The notes beneath the pieces are model-generated. The model ran no database searches, was not told the DNA's origin, and saw nothing but the letters and a program-made list of their open reading frames with translations. From the NCBI RefSeq assembly GCF_003018115.1, contig NZ_CP027457.1: a DNA stretch of 64,000 nt, one strand, 5' to 3'. Source of the stretch: Escherichia coli. Lineage in GTDB: Bacteria > Pseudomonadota > Gammaproteobacteria > Enterobacterales > Enterobacteriaceae. Below, one piece after another: positions 7,088 through 45,790 of the stretch (position 1 is the first letter of the stretch; each line of letters starts with the position of its first letter). The translations under genes were made by a program, and so were the position numbers.

Positions 7088-7759
7088 TCAGCGACCAATC
7101 ACCACAACCTGACCACCGTCCCCTTCGTCTGCCGTGCTGATCTCCTGAGAAACCACGCGAGACCCCACGCGCATTTCCCCGTACAGAACAGGCAGAACAT
7201 TGCCCTGGGCAACCATGTTATCCAGTGAGGAGAAATAGGTGTTCTGCTTACCGTTATCCGTTGTCTGTGTACGGGGAGTTCTGGCTTTCGGTGCCAGCAT
7301 CTGCGCCACACCACCGAGCACCATACTGGCACCGAGAGAAAACAGGATGCCGGTCATACCACCGGTCCCAATGGCTGCCCCCCATGCTGCAAGGGTGGCT
7401 CCGGCGGTAAAGAATGATCCGGCAATGGCGGCAGCCCCCAGGACAATCTGGAATACGCCACCTGACTTGGCCCCGGCGACTCTGGGAACAATATGAATCA
7501 CAGCGCCATCAGGCAGAGTCTCATGTAACTGCGCCGTTAACCCGGACGTGCTGACGTCCCGCCCGGCAATCCGTACCTGATACCAGCCGTCGCTCAGTTT
7601 CTGACGAAACGCCGGGAGCTGTGTGGCCAGTGCCCGGATGGCTTCAGCCCCCGTTTTCACACGAAGGTCGATGCGGCGACCAAATCGTTGTAAATCCCCG
7701 TAAAGGCAGATGCGCGCCATGCCCGGTGACGCCAGAGGGAGTGTGTGCGTCGCTGCCAT
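7088..7759 (-). CDS. I: Tail assembly protein I
   Basis: 223 aa, lambda I sequence; overlaps K as in lambda. Confidence 0.9.
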   Translation of the reverse strand: MAATHTLPLASPGMARICLYGDLQRFGRRIDLRVKTGAEAIRALATQLPAFRQKLSDGWYQVRIAGRDVSTSGLTAQLHETLPDGAVIHIVPRVAGAKSGGVFQIVLGAAAIAGSFFTAGATLAAWGAAIGTGGMTGILFSLGASMVLGGVAQMLAPKARTPRTQTTDNGKQNTYFSSLDNMVAQGNVLPVLYGEMRVGSRVVSQEISTADEGDGGQVVVIGR

Positions 7760-8400
7760 TTGTCGGTGTACCTCTCTCGTTTGCTCAGTTGTTCAGGAAT
7801 ATGGTGCAGCAGCTCGCCGTCGCCGCAGTAAATTGCGGCGTGATTCGGCACTGATGAACCAAAACAGCACAGCAGCACATCGCCCGGCTGTGCCGCTGAC
7901 AACGGCACCTGATACAGCCCCGTCGCCTCCAGATTATCCAGATAGAGATTCTGGCCGTTACGCCACCAGTCATCCTCACGATAAAAGTCCGGCATCTCAA
8001 TCCCCGCCAGATGATAAGCATCCCGGAACAGTGTGTAACAGTCCGTCACACCGTGCTCAAAGCGCCGCCCGGTGAGATGCGGCACACAGCGGAACTTATG
8101 AATCGTCCCCCGGCAGACCAGCCACCACGGCAAATCACTCTGCACCTGCAGCCGCCGGTCGGCCTCACTCAGCCAGGGCAGACCACCGGGGTGGCTGTGG
8201 ACCAGCGCCACAATCTCACCCTGCATTTCTGCCTGCAGCCAGTCTTCCGGCGACATACGGAAATACGCCTCCGGCTCACCGGAGATATTCACGCAGGGAA
8301 AATATCTTTCCCCCTCCGGCGTGCTTACCACGAAGCCGCACGACTCCGCTGGCGCACATCGCCGGGCGTGCGCCAGAATCGCTGATTCTGTCTGTGTCAT
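7657..8400 (-). CDS. K: Tail assembly protein K (MPN/JAB plus NlpC/P60-like)
   Basis: 247 aa ORF with HSHPGG motif; lambda K sequence (lambda annotation may use internal start). Confidence 0.9.
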   Translation of the reverse strand: MTQTESAILAHARRCAPAESCGFVVSTPEGERYFPCVNISGEPEAYFRMSPEDWLQAEMQGEIVALVHSHPGGLPWLSEADRRLQVQSDLPWWLVCRGTIHKFRCVPHLTGRRFEHGVTDCYTLFRDAYHLAGIEMPDFYREDDWWRNGQNLYLDNLEATGLYQVPLSAAQPGDVLLCCFGSSVPNHAAIYCGDGELLHHIPEQLSKRERYTDKWQRRTHSLWRHRAWRASAFTGIYNDLVAASTFV

Positions 8401-24202: not shown

Positions 24203-24431
24203 GCAAAAAAGCTCCCGAAGGAGCCTTCATTTTCACTTTTTTAAATCCAACGACAGACGGCTGGCATTTAAGTATTGTGAAATATTATCAAATGTAATCA
24301 TCATTGATTTACAAAAGATACATTTTGCCCCGAAAGGATTCATGTCAGAAACATCAAAAGATGATGTTCTATACTGGGAACCATGACAACACGGGCATCT
24401 AAAGTGAATATGGTTTGTAATATTGTCTACC

Positions 24432-24644
24432 TCAAAGCGCCACTACATGAACAGCGGCAGGACCTTTAGGTCCGTTCTCAATACCAAATTCAACTTCCTG
24501 ATTCTCAGTTAATGTTTTGAAATCGTTGCTCTGAATTGCTGAGAAATGGACAAACACATCTTTGCTGCCATCTTTCGGCGTGATGAAACCAAAACCTTTT
24601 TCAGGGTTAAACCATTTCACTAAACCAGTCATTTTGTTAGACAT
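24432..24644 (-). CDS. cspI: Cold shock protein CspI
   Basis: 70 aa CspA-family sequence [23 protein letters not shown]. Confidence 0.9.
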
Positions 24645-25006
24645 AATTATTACCTTTTGAAGAAATTAGCCCTTGGGCAGAATGGTCCGAAAAAAAATAT
24701 CAGAGAGAAAAACCAACAAGGAAATCTCAAGAGGTACAAATAATAAAATTATAACAATGACTGCTTCAGATAAATTTGTAACAAACCAGAACACCATTAA
24801 CGCATGATTAACCACCCATAGCAAGGATTACTTTTGTAAAGAAAAACACAGCAATGAAAGAATAGCTTTATTTATTAATAAAACGTGTCATTCTGATTAA
24901 GACCTTTTATCTTACCCTTAAGATTTCAGGAATTTTGGCTCATGGAAGAGTCCTTTTTATTTAAATTTTACATTCCGCGATGTAAATGTTCCGATTTAAT
25001 ATTACC

Positions 25007-27045: not shown

Positions 27046-27315
27046 GCTTTTTGTGGGAGTCATCCACTTACGCACTTTGTTTTGCCATGCCAGCAGTTAG
27101 CTTCTGCTGTAAAACTATTCATGCAGCAAACCTGCACTTCACCACAATGGTTAGCATACTTTTCCTGATTAAGATTTTGCCAAATATGCTAGCCATTGTT
27201 TCATGTATTGGACCTCCTTACTTTTTATTAAAGAGATCCAATATTCACTACTCTGTCCGTATCTCTACTCAGGCATCAGCCTTCTTCGTTATCGTATACA
27301 GACGAGCGATGAATT

Positions 27316-27531
27316 TTAATCAGTAATGATGACATTTGCTGCTGCAGGACCTTTAGCACCACTCTCTATAGAGAAGGTAACCTTTTGACCTTCAAATAAG
27401 GTTCGATAATTATCATTCTGAATCGCAGAAAAATGCACAAACACATCTTTACTACCATCAACAGGAGAAATAAAGCCGAAACCTTTATCAGCGTTAAACC
27501 ATTTTACTAAACCAGTCATTTTATTTGACAT
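27316..27531 (-). CDS. cspB: Cold shock protein CspB
   Basis: 71 aa CspA-family sequence [23 protein letters not shown]. Confidence 0.9.
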
Positions 27532-27831
27532 TCTACATTCCTTAACTTGAGCCTTTCGGCATAAATGGTTTGCATAACAGAAACGACTTCGTACTTAATT
27601 GGAGAGACTCAAAGAAGGAATAAGTGAATAACACCTGAAATGAGAACTGCTTTAGTAAACTACTTCGTATATCGTCTGTTCTTCAAACCGACGCAATCAT
27701 TAACGCATAGTTGAACATATGAAGCAATGTTTATTTTAGACATCCAGCCATCTTCAACCCCATCAAAAAACTATAGCTTTCTTCAGGAACGTGTGTATAG
27801 TGCGCCAAGTTATCAGTATTAAGGAATTTTT

Positions 27832-32899: not shown

Positions 32900-34600
32900 A
32901 ACTATTTCTGTAGTCACTTTTGTGGGGACAGTCCACAAAACTGCCAACTTCCGCTTCTTGCTCTTAGCGGACATTAGCATAGGCTATTTACCATAACGCC
33001 TCATTACGCGCACCGCCCAGACTGACTCAGCGCGTTTCTGGCATATCCCCGGTAAAACAAGTAACAAACCACCCGAAAATGAACACCAGAAACGCGACTT
33101 AAGAATCTACCCTATGAATGGATATGCACTCAACCGAATCGATCTTGGTTTCAATCTTTTTTATCGGGATCAGGCTTCTTTTTAGGTAACTTCGGGGGCT
33201 TAACTTGCTGATGACTTTGCGTTCGGCGCGTAAGCCAGGGATGGTCAGCTTTAGGTTTAACATAGTATTTTGAGCGTAAATCAATACGGGCATTATCCAC
33301 TCGTTCATGGACACTCTTTTCATCATCCAGTGGTATAGGCTCCGGGCCATCAACATACTTTTCCCAGCCCAGCGCTTTCCCGTCATACAGAACGTTAATT
33401 TCACCGTCAAAGTTCTCGCATACAGTAACAACCGAATGCCTAAGTCGATATCCCCGGCCCTCACTGCGTACCTGAAACGCACTGCTTTTGTACTGGAAAG
33501 TGAGATTTTTAGACAGAACGCGCTTCGCCTGTAGGCTGAAGATATAACCCAGTTCCTCTTCAGAATGGTGCACATCAAGATGAGCATTATCAGTAGTACG
33601 AGGCGACGTAGCGAACCGGTTGTTATAGGCTTCAATAAAGGTCGGCAACCATGCATTTGCTGTTTCAATATCACTGATATTCTGAAGCCGCATTTCTTTG
33701 ACCAGCCTGTCCTGTAGTGTCTGATTGGCGCGCTCTACCCGCCCTTTTGCCTGCGGGCTGTTGGCATGGATTGGCTCGATGCCCAGTGTCTTTATCGCAC
33801 GAGTGAACTGGGTCAGCTCACCTTCCCGCTCTGGGTTATTTACCCTGAATATACTGTGTCTATCAGAGTAGAGAGCGAGCGGTACGCCATGATCATTAAG
33901 GTAACCCCGGAGGGTTTCCATGTAAGCCCGGGTTGTTTCAGCAGGCACAAAACGCAACGCCATCAACGCACTGGTGGCATCATCAATGAAAACGATCAGT
34001 GTACATCTGGGGCCTCGATTTTCAAACCAGTCATGAGGTGAGCCATCAATCTGGATCAGTTCACCGTAAGATGGTCGTCGCATGCGGCGTTGATATATAC
34101 GGGCAATTTTACGACGGCGTTCACGCCATAACCCCTCTTCTATCATCCACTTTCTGAGAGTTTCAACGGATAAAGATAAACCGTGTATCTCGCGCAATTT
34201 TTCGCACGCAAACGTAGGTCCAAAATCAGCGTAACGGCCTTTGAGGAGTGAAATTACTGTTGCTCTGAATTCAGTAGAAAAGGAATTATTAGGACGCTTT
34301 CCACGTCGGTGGGAAACCAGACCAGAAGGCCCTTCATTTCTATACCGTTGCACCAGACGTTTAACCTGCCGAATAGAAATGCCAATGCGTGCCGCAGCTT
34401 GTTCCTGAATAATCTGAAGTCGGTGGAGTTCCTTATGACTCATCGTAACAGTCTCTTTGATCATGAAAAATCCCCCAGAGAATTGTCTGGGGACATTTTA
34501 GAATGGTTCAAAGGGGACATTACAGCTTGGTGTTAACAATAGCCTGCTTCTCCGTGCCTTTCGGCACGTAAGAGGCTAACCTACATGTGTCTAGCATGAA
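32900..34600 (-). mobile_element. Insertion sequence carrying a single DDE transposase (IS481/ISNCY-type); ends not resolved
   Basis: Single 437-aa transposase ORF; terminal inverted repeats could not be assigned by eye. Confidence 0.55.
33151..34464 (-). CDS. DDE transposase with N-terminal HTH and integrase-core (rve) catalytic domain
   Basis: 437 aa; D (IQIDGS), D (YSDRHS), E (GRVERANQ) triad spacing typical of rve. Confidence 0.85.
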   Translation of the reverse strand: MIKETVTMSHKELHRLQIIQEQAAARIGISIRQVKRLVQRYRNEGPSGLVSHRRGKRPNNSFSTEFRATVISLLKGRYADFGPTFACEKLREIHGLSLSVETLRKWMIEEGLWRERRRKIARIYQRRMRRPSYGELIQIDGSPHDWFENRGPRCTLIVFIDDATSALMALRFVPAETTRAYMETLRGYLNDHGVPLALYSDRHSIFRVNNPEREGELTQFTRAIKTLGIEPIHANSPQAKGRVERANQTLQDRLVKEMRLQNISDIETANAWLPTFIEAYNNRFATSPRTTDNAHLDVHHSEEELGYIFSLQAKRVLSKNLTFQYKSSAFQVRSEGRGYRLRHSVVTVCENFDGEINVLYDGKALGWEKYVDGPEPIPLDDEKSVHERVDNARIDLRSKYYVKPKADHPWLTRRTQSHQQVKPPKLPKKKPDPDKKD

Positions 34601-34798
34601 ATTGGCCTCAGATTAATGTTAAGCGTCTTGCAGGACGCGTAATGTTAACTGGGGCTTTTCTCTATCTGCCGTTGGTGTCCATGCCCGAGGCAGATAGCCT
34701 CAAGCACCCGCAGTCATTCTACTTAACTAAGATTTCCCCGCAAACCGTTTTTGTCCAGCACAGTAAATATCCAACTAAACCAATGGAGTTCGCTGTAT

Positions 34799-41582: not shown

Positions 41583-41652
41583 CATCATCAATGAGTTATC
41601 TTTTACCACATCAATTATGTTAGCTATAGCATACAAAATCACTTGACCGATA

Positions 41653-41670: not shown

Positions 41671-41748
41671 TTGTTTGCATCAACACACCGCACGGTGTTC
41701 TCAGCAAACAGTTCCGCTACCCCAGCGTTAAGGGGAAATGAGGTCAGC

Positions 41749-41905: not shown

Positions 41906-42034
41906 ATGGATTTCGACACAATCATGGAAAAGGCTTACGAAGAATACTTCGAAGGCCTTGCCGAAGGCGAAGAAGCTCTCAGCTTCAGTGAGTTTAAACA
42001 GGCGCTTTCCAGTTCGGCAAAATCTAACGGCTGA
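41906..42034 (+). CDS. ydfB: YdfB
   Basis: Hand-translated 42 aa MDFDTIMEKAYEEYFEGLAEGEEALSFSEFKQALSSSAKSNG. Confidence 0.7.
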   Translation: MDFDTIMEKAYEEYFEGLAEGEEALSFSEFKQALSSSAKSNG

Positions 42035-42063
42035 TAAGCGAAACAGCACCGCGAGGAATCAGT

Positions 42064-42282
42064 ATGCAGAAACGAGAACCCGTCATCATCGCGCCAGACT
42101 ATACCGATGATGAACTTTATGAGTGGATGCGCCAGAAAATTAATGCAGCGCAGGATCTGAAATGGGCTAATGAAGCCAGGGCTAAGCAGGCTGAAAATCT
42201 GTCCGCTCTGGAGCAGGATATCACCAATCTGGAAAAAGCAGCGGCATTAAGCATTGCCAGAATGATTACATACCCGCGTTAG
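42064..42282 (+). CDS. ydfC: YdfC
   Basis: 72 aa MQKREPVIIAPDYTDDELYEWMRQKINAAQDLKWANEARAKQAENL. Confidence 0.85.
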   Translation: MQKREPVIIAPDYTDDELYEWMRQKINAAQDLKWANEARAKQAENLSALEQDITNLEKAAALSIARMITYPR

Positions 42283-42620
42283 TAGCTAATCAACAAAGCT
42301 AAGGTTAGTAATTAAGGAGTTCTCCACGGGTGAGGTGGAGTGCGTGCGCCGGACACGGGTGCGCATCCGGAACTGACAGTTTACTGAAAGGATATTTCCC
42401 TGAAAAGTCAGACCATAACGCGAAAGCGCACGGCGAGGTAGCTGGTTCATAGATAGCCTGTCGTTAAATTTTCGTCGACCGTGCGCTTCCGGTTGTGGCA
42501 ACCCGCGAAATGGCGCGGCGGTAAGTATGGCGGGGTTATTCCTTCCCCGTTGAGGACACCGGGTTGTCAGGTTGACCATACGCTTAAGTGACAACCCCGC
42601 TGCAACGCCCTCTGTTATCA

Positions 42621-42679
42621 ATTTTCTGGTGACGTTTGGCGGTATCAGTTTTACTCCGTGACTGCTCTGCCGCCCTTTT
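42621..42679 (+). ncRNA. dicF: DicF small regulatory RNA (antisense inhibitor of ftsZ translation)
   Basis: Sequence TTTCTGGTGACGTTTGGCGGTATCAGTTTTACTCCGTGACTGCTCTGCCGCCCTTTTT with 3' terminator hairpin, between ydfC and dicB. Confidence 0.75.
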
Positions 42680-42849
42680 TAAAGTGAATTTTGTGATGTG
42701 GTGAATGCGGCTGAGCGCACGCGGAACAGTTAAAACCAAAAACAGTGTTATGGGTGGATTCTCTGTATCCGGCGTTAATTGTTAACTAGTTAACGTCACC
42801 TGGAGGCACCAGGCACTGCATCACAAAATTCATTGTTGAGGACGCGATA

Positions 42850-43038
42850 ATGAAAACGTTATTACCAAACGTTAATACGTCTGAAGGTTGTTTTGAAATT
42901 GGTGTCACTATCAGTAACCCAGTATTTACTGAAGATGCCATTAACAAGAGAAAACAAGAACGGGAGCTATTAAATAAAATATGCATTGTTTCAATGCTGG
43001 CTCGTTTACGTCTGATGCCAAAAGGATGTGCACAATGA
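42850..43038 (+). CDS. dicB: Cell division inhibitor DicB
   Basis: 62 aa MKTLLPNVNTSEGCFEIGVTISNPVFTEDAINKRKQERELLNK. Confidence 0.9.
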   Translation: MKTLLPNVNTSEGCFEIGVTISNPVFTEDAINKRKQERELLNKICIVSMLARLRLMPKGCAQ

Positions 43039-43226: not shown

Positions 43227-43318
43227 AACAGTTCCGTAATAAATATCCGGTTTCATTCTTATATGCCAGCAATGGCAGGGATTTGTTCATCCTTAAATCT
43301 GTCATGAGGTTAAAACAA

Positions 43319-45790
43319 ATGAGTAAAGTCTTTATTTGCGCCGCTATTCCTGACGAACTGGCAACAAGGGAAGAAGGCGCTGTGGCTGTAGCCACAGCCA
43401 TTGAAGCTGGCGACGAACGCCGTGCTCGAGCAAAATTTCACTGGCAATTCCTGGAACATTATCCGGCTGCTCAGGACTGCGCTTATAAATTTATTGTCTG
43501 CGAGGATAAACCTGGCATACCCCGCCCTGCCCTCGATTCATGGGATGCTGAATATATGCAGGAAAACCGCTGGGATGAGGAGTCTGCTTCTTTTGTCCCG
43601 GTTGAGACTGAATCCGATCCGATGAACGTCACTTTTGACAAGCTGGCCCCTGAAGTACAGAACGCTGTCATGGTTAAGTTCGACACATGTGAAAACATCA
43701 CCGTTGATATGGTTATTAGCGCACAGGAATTGTTGCAGGAAGACATGGCAACATTCGACGGACATATCGTTGAAGCGTTGATGAAAATGCCAGAAGTTAA
43801 CGCCATGTATCCGGAGCTTAAGTTGCACGCCATTGGGTGGGTTAAGCATAAATGTATTCCTGGTGCTAAATGGCCCGAAATTCAGGCAGAGATGCGCATC
43901 TGGAAAAAACGTCGCGAAGGTGAACGCAAGGAAACCGGAAAATACACGTCTGTTGTTGATCTCGCCCGCGCCAGAGCCAATCAACAGTACACTGAAAATT
44001 CAACAGGAAAAATCAGCCCGGTCATTGCTGCCATTCATCGCGAATACAAGCAGACATGGAAAACACTGGATGACGAACTGGCCTACGCTCTCTGGCCTAG
44101 TGATGTGGATGCCGGAAACATTGACGGCAGCATCCATCGCTGGGCAAAAAAAGAAGTTATCGACAACGACCGCGAAGACTGGAAGCGTATCTCGGCATCA
44201 ATGCGCAAACAGCCTGATGCCCTTCGCTACGACCGCCAAACTATTTTTGGCCTTGTCCGTGAGCGTCCGATCGACATTCACAAAGATCCCGTAGCACTGA
44301 ACAAATATATCTGCGAATACCTGACGACAAAGGGCGTGTTTGAGAATGAAGAAACAGACCTGGGCACTGTTGATGTTCTCCAGTCATCAGAAACACAAAC
44401 TGATGCAGTGGAAACTGAGGTATCTGATATCCCAAAAAATGAAACCGCGCCGGAAGCTGAACCATCTGTAGAGCGTGAGGGGCCGTTCTATTTCCTCTTC
44501 GCAGATAAGGACGGAGAAAAATACGGTCGCGCAAACAAACTCTCTGGTCTGGATAAGGCACTGGCTGCTGGCGCCACTGAAATCACAAAAGAAGAATATT
44601 TTGCCCGAAAAAATGGCACATACACGGGCTTACCGCAAAATGTAGATACCGCTGAAGATTCAGAACAACCAGAGCCGATAAAAGTTACCGCTGACGAAGT
44701 AAACAAAATTATGCAGGCAGCCAATATCAGCCAGCCTGACGCCGATAAGTTGCTTGCTGCATCACGTGGTGAATTTGTTGAAGGGATTAGTGACCCGAAT
44801 GATCCGAAATGGGTTAAGGGGCTCCAGACCCGCGATTCTGTGAACCAGAACCAGCATGAATCGGAACGGAACTACCAAAAAGCGGAACAAAACAGTCCAA
44901 ATGCGTTACAAAACGAGCCAGAAACGAAACAGCCTGAACCAGTAGCGCAACAGGAAGTGGAAAAAGTCTGCACCGCCTGCGGTCAGACCGGCGGCGGCAA
45001 CTGCCCTGATTGTGGCGCGGTGATGGGCGACGCAACATACCAAGAAACATTCGATGAAGAGTATCAGGTTGAAGTTCAGGAAGATGATCCGGAGGAAATG
45101 GAAGGCGCTGAACATCCACACAAGGAGAACACTGGCGGCAATCAGCATCACAATAGCGATAATGAAACTGGCGAGACGGCAGATCACCCAATTAAGGTGA
45201 ACGGTCATCACGAAATCACATCCACCAGCAGGACGTGTGACCATCTAATGATCGACCTTGAAACCATGGGAAAAAATCCTGATGCCCCGATCATCTCAAT
45301 AGGTGCAATATTTTTCGATCCGCAAACCGGAGATATGGGACCGGAATTTAGTAAGACTATCGATCTGGAAACTGCTGGCGGAGTCATTGATCGGGACACC
45401 ATTAAATGGTGGCTTAAGCAATCACGCGAAGCGCAATCTGCCATTATGACCGATGAAATCCCGTTAGATGATGCACTGTTACAATTGCGAGAATTTATCG
45501 ACGAAAACTCCGGTGAATTTTTTGTTCAGGTTTGGGGAAATGGAGCCAACTTCGACAACACGATTTTGCGCCGTTCATACGAACGGCAGGGGATCCCCTG
45601 CCCGTGGCGTTACTACAACGATCGCGATGTACGCACAATCGTTGAGCTGGGGAAAGCCATAGACTTCGATGCCAGAACGGCTATTCCATTCGAAGGTGAG
45701 CGCCATAATGCACTTGATGACGCCCGTTACCAGGCAAAATACGTTTCAGTTATCTGGCAAAAACTGATCCCGAGTCAGGCTGATTCTTAA
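43319..45790 (+). CDS. ydfE: Full-length YdfE-type protein: large N-terminal region, acidic linker, Cys4 zinc ribbon, C-terminal DEDDh 3'-5' exonuclease domain
   Basis: ORF track 43283-45790; start chosen at MSKVFICAAIPDEL after GAGG; Exo I DLE, Exo II GNGANFD, Exo III HNALDDARY motifs in the last ~190 aa. Confidence 0.7.
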   Translation: MSKVFICAAIPDELATREEGAVAVATAIEAGDERRARAKFHWQFLEHYPAAQDCAYKFIVCEDKPGIPRPALDSWDAEYMQENRWDEESASFVPVETESDPMNVTFDKLAPEVQNAVMVKFDTCENITVDMVISAQELLQEDMATFDGHIVEALMKMPEVNAMYPELKLHAIGWVKHKCIPGAKWPEIQAEMRIWKKRREGERKETGKYTSVVDLARARANQQYTENSTGKISPVIAAIHREYKQTWKTLDDELAYALWPSDVDAGNIDGSIHRWAKKEVIDNDREDWKRISASMRKQPDALRYDRQTIFGLVRERPIDIHKDPVALNKYICEYLTTKGVFENEETDLGTVDVLQSSETQTDAVETEVSDIPKNETAPEAEPSVEREGPFYFLFADKDGEKYGRANKLSGLDKALAAGATEITKEEYFARKNGTYTGLPQNVDTAEDSEQPEPIKVTADEVNKIMQAANISQPDADKLLAASRGEFVEGISDPNDPKWVKGLQTRDSVNQNQHESERNYQKAEQNSPNALQNEPETKQPEPVAQQEVEKVCTACGQTGGGNCPDCGAVMGDATYQETFDEEYQVEVQEDDPEEMEGAEHPHKENTGGNQHHNSDNETGETADHPIKVNGHHEITSTSRTCDHLMIDLETMGKNPDAPIISIGAIFFDPQTGDMGPEFSKTIDLETAGGVIDRDTIKWWLKQSREAQSAIMTDEIPLDDALLQLREFIDENSGEFFVQVWGNGANFDNTILRRSYERQGIPCPWRYYNDRDVRTIVELGKAIDFDARTAIPFEGERHNALDDARYQAKYVSVIWQKLIPSQADS

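Follow-up and report, generated by a model that had tools for sequence, protein, structure and literature searches.

The window analysed here, a 64,000-nt stretch of Escherichia coli DNA, contains a Qin-type prophage that is 100% identical to E. coli ATCC 8739 across the feature under study and 99.75% identical, with 0 gaps, to K-12 over the 800 nt around it. A ydfC-like ORF has its 3' end at 42282. Downstream of it DicF is recognised at 42624-42675 (+) with 76.7 bits (Rfam RF00039), and the K-12 annotation of dicF, 53 nt long, corresponds to 42623-42675. The end of the ORF and the start of dicF therefore delimit a spacer of 340 nt, in which RefSeq annotates nothing in either K-12 or ATCC 8739. 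Its sole ORF of at least 60 aa runs antisense, encodes 111 aa and is labelled 'hypothetical protein' by some pipelines; three small ORFs of 29-40 aa lie on the plus strand. No Pfam match at E<=1 was obtained for the antisense ORF or for two of the three small sense ORFs, and every reading frame of the spacer is broken by 1-nt indels between near-identical copies. A preliminary description of the window had spoken of an untranslated spacer of about 340 nt whose only longer ORF is antisense and implausible, and on both points our results agree with it. It had also called the spacer GC-rich, which is true of the 3' part but not of the whole. Across its full length the spacer has 52.8% GC against a window mean of 50.7%, a weak difference given that 43% of equal-sized windows are equally or more GC-rich. 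Within the spacer just the 3' part is richer, with 55% in the duplex and 58% in the core described below, compared with 48% in the surrounding prophage. No promoter-like site was found on the plus strand of the spacer. The plus strand folds better than shuffled sequence (z = -3.0; 1/100 shuffles as good), but this fold-energy test is not decisive on its own because the minus strand gives a similar value (z = -2.6). The features of the locus are collected in Table 1.

Table 1. Features of the ydfC-DicF spacer and its surroundings, in window coordinates.
Feature	Position	Strand	Basis or remark
ydfC-DicF spacer (ydfC 3' UTR)	42283-42622	+	340 nt, without credible gene
Antisense ORF, 111 aa	42286-42621	-	Not a gene: no Pfam match, frame-breaking indels
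5' third of spacer, mosaic, poorly conserved	42283-42412	+	Cross-genome match starts, MFE fold
Long irregular duplex, RNase III substrate	42413-42499	+	MFE and centroid folds
RNase III cut for 190-nt DicF, probable position	42486-42491	+	1-6 nt upstream of P0
Conserved structured core, about 115 nt	42492-42606	+	Covariance model R1
Core P0, closing stem	42492-42499/42599-42606	+	Comparative alignment
Core P1 hairpin	42503-42507/42514-42518	+	Comparative alignment
Core P2a	42520-42522/42558-42560	+	Short helix carrying P2
Core P2, variable stem, pyrimidine-rich loop	42531-42535/42545-42549	+	Comparative alignment
Core P3a	42561-42567/42591-42597	+	Comparative alignment
Core P3b	42569-42571/42583-42585	+	Comparative alignment
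Core pseudoknot GUAUGG/CCAUAC	42525-42530/42576-42581	+	CCAUAC within P3 loop
Linker, ends at RNase E site 42622/42623	42607-42622	+	K-12 dicF annotation mapped
DicF sRNA, intrinsic terminator hairpin (42637-42673) and U-tail	42623-42680	+	Rfam RF00039
Downstream duplex, arms 42685-42703 and 42814-42832	42685-42832	+	Inverted repeat I1, 19 nt, 89% complementary

Processing of the dicBp transcript has been determined in K-12. A cut by RNase III at +813/814 of the transcript defines the 5' end of a 190-nt DicF species, whereas the 5' end of the 53-nt form is due to RNase E. No internal promoter was detected, and the 190-nt species is stable and accumulates as RNA (bioRxiv 10.1101/2023.04.14.536235, which cites Faubladier et al. 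1990). A second RNase III cut, on the 3' side, gives rise to a 72-nt DicF (PMC5069750, PMC9438474). We transferred the first RNase III cut to the window in two ways. Measured back from the 3' end at 42675, a length of 190 nt leads to 42486, and counting +813/814 from dicBp (-35 at 41643-41648, start near 41678) leads to about 42490/42491; we infer that this placement is good to a few nucleotides. Because the RNase III end lies 1-6 nt before helix P0 of the core, the 190-nt RNA consists of the core, the linker and DicF, and is the same molecule as the 'long DicF' of earlier work (Faubladier et al. 1990; Ragunathan et al. 2023). The locus has a duplex at the mapped end and a published dependence on rnc and rne, as found in RNase III-processed, operon-internal sRNA precursors. 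The preliminary description had taken the spacer for a likely processing substrate from which an endonuclease releases DicF, and had named end mapping as a check. The cuts published for K-12, which is near-identical here, confirm this, and the processing intermediate exists in the form of the 190-nt DicF. The idea is correct, yet not new, since it had already been published.

Upstream of the duplex the spacer is variable. Matches in other genomes start at query positions 21, 43, 61 or 121, which mark mosaic breakpoints. The MFE fold predicts local hairpins here at about 42322-42340 and 42341-42365, and the segment also has a degenerate copy of a CCCUGAAAAGUCAGGG hairpin that relatives carry near 42400-42413. 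The duplex itself is the longest inverted repeat of the spacer, and the RNase III end falls inside it. Its core arms (42421-42433 and 42479-42491; inverted repeat I2) are 13 nt long and 92% complementary, and GUUGUGG in the 3' arm doubles as the 5' strand of P0. A second lineage, the cdtI-type copies, has the same duplex architecture built from different sequences, the arms being GAAAGCGCACGG/CCGUGCGCUUCC in Qin-type copies and UGAGGGCAU/GUGCUCUCA in cdtI-type copies, and in both types the 3' arm contains the P0 5' strand. Because the sequences differ between the lineages, the RNase III-type stem is kept as a structure, one that competes with P0. In some lineages a GUGCUCU(C/U)UUCG motif located 5' of P0 is the 3' arm of an RNase III-type duplex. 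At the other end of the core, the linker differs between lineages in both length and sequence. Taken together, we consider the anatomy and the maturation path of the spacer RNA to be well supported.

The core matches our covariance model R1 with 161 bits (E about 3e-51) and is present in the window as a single copy. Two nearly invariant blocks, GGCGCGGCGG-UAAG-YAUGG and CAGGUUGACCAURCGCYU-AGUG, stand out between flanks that are unrelated from one copy to another. Some 45 nt are invariant from lambdoid phages to phage P1, the near-invariant single-stranded nucleotides are common to unrelated phages, and conservation of the core far exceeds that of DicF, the linker and the duplex. The core helices and the pseudoknot are supported by compensatory changes. 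In a MAFFT alignment of 67 core copies, 95.9% of the cells are paired versus 34-54% with slid partners, and 8 pairs are changed on both sides versus 2.5 +/- 1.1 after shuffling (0/500). The corresponding values for a model-based alignment of 73 copies including phages P1 and P7 (A3), which is fitted to the model and so leans towards its own structure, are 96.4% versus 33-56% for paired cells and 12 versus 3.5 +/- 1.3 for double changes (0/500). P3 by itself contributes 5 pairs changed on both sides, compared with 1.2 in shuffled alignments (0/500), and compensatory double changes are seen in five helices altogether. All members found come from phages of Enterobacteriaceae, so many of these changes may be inherited and not independent. 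The two strands of the pseudoknot are paired in 99.8-100% in a sample that is biased, because the search pattern fixed both of them. Four of the six pseudoknot pairs are invariant and therefore uninformative either way, and most of helix P1 is likewise invariant and yields no covariation information.

The clearest individual changes come from phages P1 and P7, which have near-identical flanks. At the pseudoknot P1 has GCAUGG/CCAUGC and P7 has GUAUGG/CCAUAC; the UA pair is changed to CG in P1-type copies, while P7, whose background is otherwise identical, retains it, and UG is found at this position in three copies. In P2a the two phages have GGU/ACC and GGC/GCC, respectively. P1-like copies also have a quite different P0, AGCU(GUUA).../...(UAAC)GAGCU. 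The model misaligned P0 and shifted the register of P2 in these copies, and both helices were analysed separately. A P2 hairpin is present in 31/31 distinct variants, always with a pyrimidine-rich loop. Two further helices were considered and discarded. Helix I5 (42496-42505 with 42560-42569) is pairable in 94.5% of cells, but it shows no covariation (358/500 shuffles as good) and is missing in phage P1. Conservation of helix I3 is impossible because P2 varies. The MFE fold of the 191-nt RNA differs in that the G-rich block at the 5' end pairs over a long distance with the 3' arm of the terminator, and the MFE folds of P1-like leaders are unstable. We judge these folds, which leave out the pseudoknot, to be less reliable than the comparative evidence. 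A tRNA or tmRNA identity was also rejected, as ARAGORN returned 0 genes for 42200-42800; the cloverleaf-like outline of P0 and three arms is a mere resemblance.

The core has no Rfam family. A search of 42000-42900 against Rfam 15 at E<=10 returned just DicF, STnc100 downstream of it and three chance-level matches outside the core, and the DicF family itself (RF00039, gathering score 48 bits) has no match within 42283-42622. The invariant strings of the core do not occur in the literature searched. Neither do its fold, the pseudoknot, conservation beyond DicF or a link to phage P1 in the literature searched on the 190-nt DicF, which does not cover Faubladier and Bouche 1994 or the P1 genome paper. 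The suggestion in the preliminary description that the spacer could hide additional RNA elements has thus led to a conserved, pseudoknotted domain, and the structure prediction and covariation analysis that it had recommended turned up a conserved fold whose double changes are matched by 0/500 shuffles.

Distribution of the element is wide. A 398-nt query comprising the spacer and DicF matches 4327/5426 complete E. coli genomes, about 80%. The core alone is found in 61 phage records and in 511 plasmid records, the plasmids being mostly P1-like, and it also occurs in E. albertii and Citrobacter among the matches listed. A 16-mer contig scan used a probe that was too short, 116 of its at least 120 loci being chance hits. 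Copies of the core without DicF are present in CPS-53-type prophages, phage cdtI, Stx2c phages and Salmonella phage F1055, and another is carried by a phage labelled Actinobacillus. We made two observations on such host labels. The record of 'Actinobacillus phage vB_Apl-pPE4' (PP818812.1; L006) has an early region with DicA, YdaT, Kil and ExoVIII and an E. coli-type module, and a soil metagenome-assembled genome named 'Proteobacteria bacterium' (JAGTSE010000010.1; L152) carries an E. coli-type module as well; the host or bin assignment of both may be wrong. Many public records also have 'hypothetical protein' ORFs called across the core, and these are almost certainly spurious.

In its genomic context the core is tied to early operons. 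It lies on the strand of the early-left genes in 129/129 neighbourhoods, with DicB/YdfD/Exo or YfdP/YfdQ downstream, and a repressor homolog is located upstream on the same strand in 82/112. The distance to the promoter varies. The core of phages P1, P7, SJ46 and RCS47 lies about 36 nt after the start from C1-controlled ban promoters; in P1 it comes directly after the C1 operators and Pban, and the P1 record has a note reading 'dicF-like region'. In the cdtI and F1055 types it is located just past cI, and in the Qin type about 810 nt downstream of the promoter, after ydfABC. Phage Tritos, which is viable, carries cI and three small ORFs together with DicF, dicB, ydfD, exo and xis. N-type antiterminators (PHROG families) were found neither among the early-left ORFs nor in the annotations.

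An intrinsic terminator follows the core in 127/129 copies and is formed by about 30 different hairpins, starting 24-62 nt past the P3 anchor in 79 measured flanks. In the sole terminator-less variant (L129/L060) the downstream DNA has been replaced. The terminator of DicF in the window (dG -15.1 kcal/mol) is the only strong plus-strand terminator in this operon, which fits a terminator that is part of the RNA unit. In phage P1 the tail is a bare 18-nt UUCG hairpin and not an antisense tail. A constant core, a variable linker and tail, and the bare tail of P1 suggest that the core is the constant body and that DicF is a lineage-specific tail. Three lineages have a long terminator loop in which GGAGG is followed by ATG (L025, about 7660-7720; L046, about 8115-8185; L008, phage F1055, about 2680-2720), and it is possible that a mini-ORF or leader peptide lies inside these terminator hairpins.

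On the other side of DicF, the arms of inverted repeat I1 bracket the DicF-dicB spacer, the 3' arm ending just before the ribosome-binding site of dicB. The published RNase III 3' end of the 72-nt DicF (about 42694) falls in the 5' arm, and the I1 duplex is probably the substrate of this cut. The same region (42673-42882) has a match to STnc100 (Rfam RF02076) with 33.7 bits, below the gathering score of 47. Sub-threshold matches of this kind lie over the DicF-dicB spacer in the window, in L003, in L006 and in phage P1. The stretch in P1 (L005, 3842-3961, +; 33.4 bits) is upstream of tciA, and so the two non-coding segments flanking DicF in Qin both have relatives in P1. STnc100 is a neighbouring conserved non-coding stretch of the same operons that lies downstream of DicF and does not overlap the core. 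The 9-mer GTTGAGGAC is found both at 42549-42557, the P2-P3 junction of the core, and at 42835-42843, in the Shine-Dalgarno region of dicB. Either copy could base-pair with the pyrimidine-rich P2 loop (UUCCUU), but the repeat may be due to chance because the P2-P3 junction is not conserved in other lineages. The window contains several other features of note. Two matches to the cspA thermoregulator, at 24405-24790 (-) and 27300-27692 (-) with 112.8 and 158.8 bits, presumably correspond to the cold-shock paralogs of Qin-type prophages. A sok antitoxin RNA match at 34538-34709 (-; 104 bits) implies a hok/sok-type toxin-antitoxin locus in the prophage. After ydfD, the large exonuclease ORF at 43283-45790 (+) is intact, with 835 aa from a TTG start, and is annotated as 'exonuclease' in the RefSeq entry for ATCC 8739; its K-12 counterpart is the IS2-disrupted pseudogene ydfE.

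Because the core is a structured RNA at the head of phage early operons, we compared it with known elements in similar positions. HK022 putL and putR are protein-independent processive antiterminators, structured and conserved, that lie just past repressor-controlled early promoters in phages lacking N. Like them, the core is on the sense strand of a repressor-controlled early operon. However, put consists of two stem-loops of about 70 nt and occurs as a left and right pair, whereas the core is a closed four-helix pseudoknot of about 115 nt and occurs in one copy. With HK022 putL and putR located, neither an alignment by eye nor an R1 match at E<=1 was obtained, and the core is not a put homologue. 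The nutL region and N-leader of lambda comprise a promoter-proximal RNA element and an RNase III-processed hairpin in the early-left leader. The core locus also pairs such an element with such a hairpin, but unlike lambda nut it is without an N gene and without a boxB-like hairpin. A boxA or nut identity was rejected as well, since the boxA-like GUGCUCUC motif forms one arm of the RNase III duplex, the type found in the window does not have it, and an N-type gene is missing. The C4 antisense RNA of phages P1 and P7 (Rfam RF01695) resembles the core in being a small structured RNA that a host RNase cuts from an early-operon leader, and the two occur in the same phages. Maturation of C4 depends on RNase P, and its pairing targets lie in its own mRNA; it has no sequence or model similarity to the core. 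In phage cdtI (L007, 40-228, -), matches to C4 antisense RNA (68 bits) and IsrK (60 bits) are adjacent to each other beside the antirepressor gene.

We tentatively propose, with a probability of roughly 0.45, that the duplex, the pseudoknotted core of about 115 nt and the terminator make up a conserved early-phage RNA unit that yields a discrete RNA whose body binds a host factor. The spacer would then be the 5' part of a conserved RNA unit in the early operons of temperate phages and not inert filler. As the duplex holds the P0 5' strand, cleavage should let P0 close: RNase III would free this strand from the duplex, and the core could then fold. In phage P1 a start only about 36 nt upstream would let the core fold, and the unit would be made directly from the promoter. 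Within a discrete early RNA of about 150-190 nt, also predicted for P1 and cdtI-type phages, the core would be the constant body and the linker and terminator hairpin the variable tail. In the Qin lineage this tail may have become the antisense regulator DicF. The simplest way to account for a terminator kept in nearly every copy, a conserved excision site at the 5' end and a stable product is that they are parts of a discrete RNA. About 45 invariant nucleotides, together with a phage P1 copy that is without an antisense tail, suggest that the body most likely acts alone by binding a conserved host factor, a function that we infer from these features. The 190-nt RNA itself has always been treated as a processing intermediate (bioRxiv 10.1101/2023.04.14.536235; PMC9438474). 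A position at the operon head just before a terminator is equally expected of a cis-acting element.

It is possible that the core acts in cis instead, with the nascent RNA affecting the elongating RNA polymerase in the manner of put or as a factor-binding attenuator. It would then set read-through into dicB, kil, exo and xis, or into the tRNAs and ban in P1, and the released RNA would be a by-product. In favour of this, the core is placed within the 5' part of early operons under repressor control, in P1 only about 36-130 nt from the ban start, and its near-invariant single-stranded nucleotides suggest a conserved host partner such as RNA polymerase. In addition, exo and xis lie past the strong terminator that directly follows the core in viable phages such as Tritos, and no N-type antiterminators were found in the early-left regions. 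For P1, an antitermination protein has not been shown experimentally, and antiterminators are suspected (PMC10695390). However, the core differs from put in fold and gives no model match to it, and the PR side does not carry a second copy. Processive antitermination across many terminators was rejected, because there is no downstream terminator excess that would call for it, and no conserved anti-terminator pairing was found. A cis element also does not need a conserved RNase III duplex that excises the unit, and for read-through alone, loss of the terminator would be simpler than keeping it in 127/129 copies. A small-molecule aptamer that switches the adjacent terminator through mutually exclusive pairing, that is, a classical transcriptional riboswitch, is very improbable. 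The locus does have the layout of one, a conserved pseudoknotted leader fold directly upstream of an intrinsic terminator in 127/129 copies, but in 8/8 lineages shuffled sequence allows equally good pairing of the P0 3' strand and linker with the terminator 5' arm (0.22-0.89 of shuffles as good). Spacing of the terminator and sequence of the linker vary freely, the downstream genes have no common metabolic theme, and there is no match to an Rfam riboswitch.

We find it unlikely that the core is merely a passive precursor scaffold whose role is to offer the duplex to RNase III, to place the RNase E site correctly and to keep the 5' seed of DicF masked until cleavage. Both RNase cuts flank the core exactly, the MFE fold pairs linker UGUUAUCA with DicF UGGUGACG, which would mask the DicF 5' end, and the literature regards the 190-nt RNA as an intermediate. 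A scaffold, however, would not need a pseudoknot and some 45 invariant nucleotides, nor would it be expected to be far more conserved than DicF, the linker or the duplex. The core also persists in phages P1 and P7 and in cdtI-type phages, which have no DicF-like seed or a very short linker. Finally, it is scarcely credible that there is no RNA element at all and that the conservation reflects a small gene for a protein, on one strand or the other, or a site at which protein binds the DNA. Several pipelines do annotate a 'hypothetical protein' over the core, and invariant blocks could in principle be DNA sites. Against this, there are no Pfam matches, 1-nt indels break the frames among close relatives, compensatory double changes of the kind seen in five helices are characteristic of RNA, and the stretch is transcribed and accumulates as RNA (bioRxiv 10.1101/2023.04.14.536235).

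A more far-reaching and rather speculative reading is that the core represents a new class of host-factor-binding phage RNA, which has neither sequence nor fold in common with put but may, as put does, act directly on RNA polymerase or on another core machine of the host. It would be common to N-less lambdoid phages and to phage-plasmids of the P1 family, and would gate expression of the early operon (dicB, kil, exo and xis; tRNAs and ban in P1) at the adjacent terminator. RNase III cleavage would serve as a folding switch, and DicF would be a later add-on to an older device.

While RNase III and RNase E processing at this locus was already known, a widespread pseudoknotted domain linking the dicBF module to the ban leader of phage P1 is unreported. 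DicF, one of the bacterial sRNAs that have been known for longest, influences cell division and metabolism as well as phage resistance and the virulence of EHEC. The 'untranslated region' upstream of it, so far seen as a processing leader, contains a domain that is more conserved than DicF itself. Roughly four out of every five E. coli genomes sequenced have this domain, P1-type plasmids carry it too, and it is without annotation. The view of what constitutes the conserved unit changes accordingly. Annotation of the core would clear spurious 'hypothetical protein' calls from thousands of genomes. The core is also an easily mutated target for the study of how N-less temperate phages carry transcription beyond a promoter-proximal terminator and of the role of the stable 190-nt RNA.
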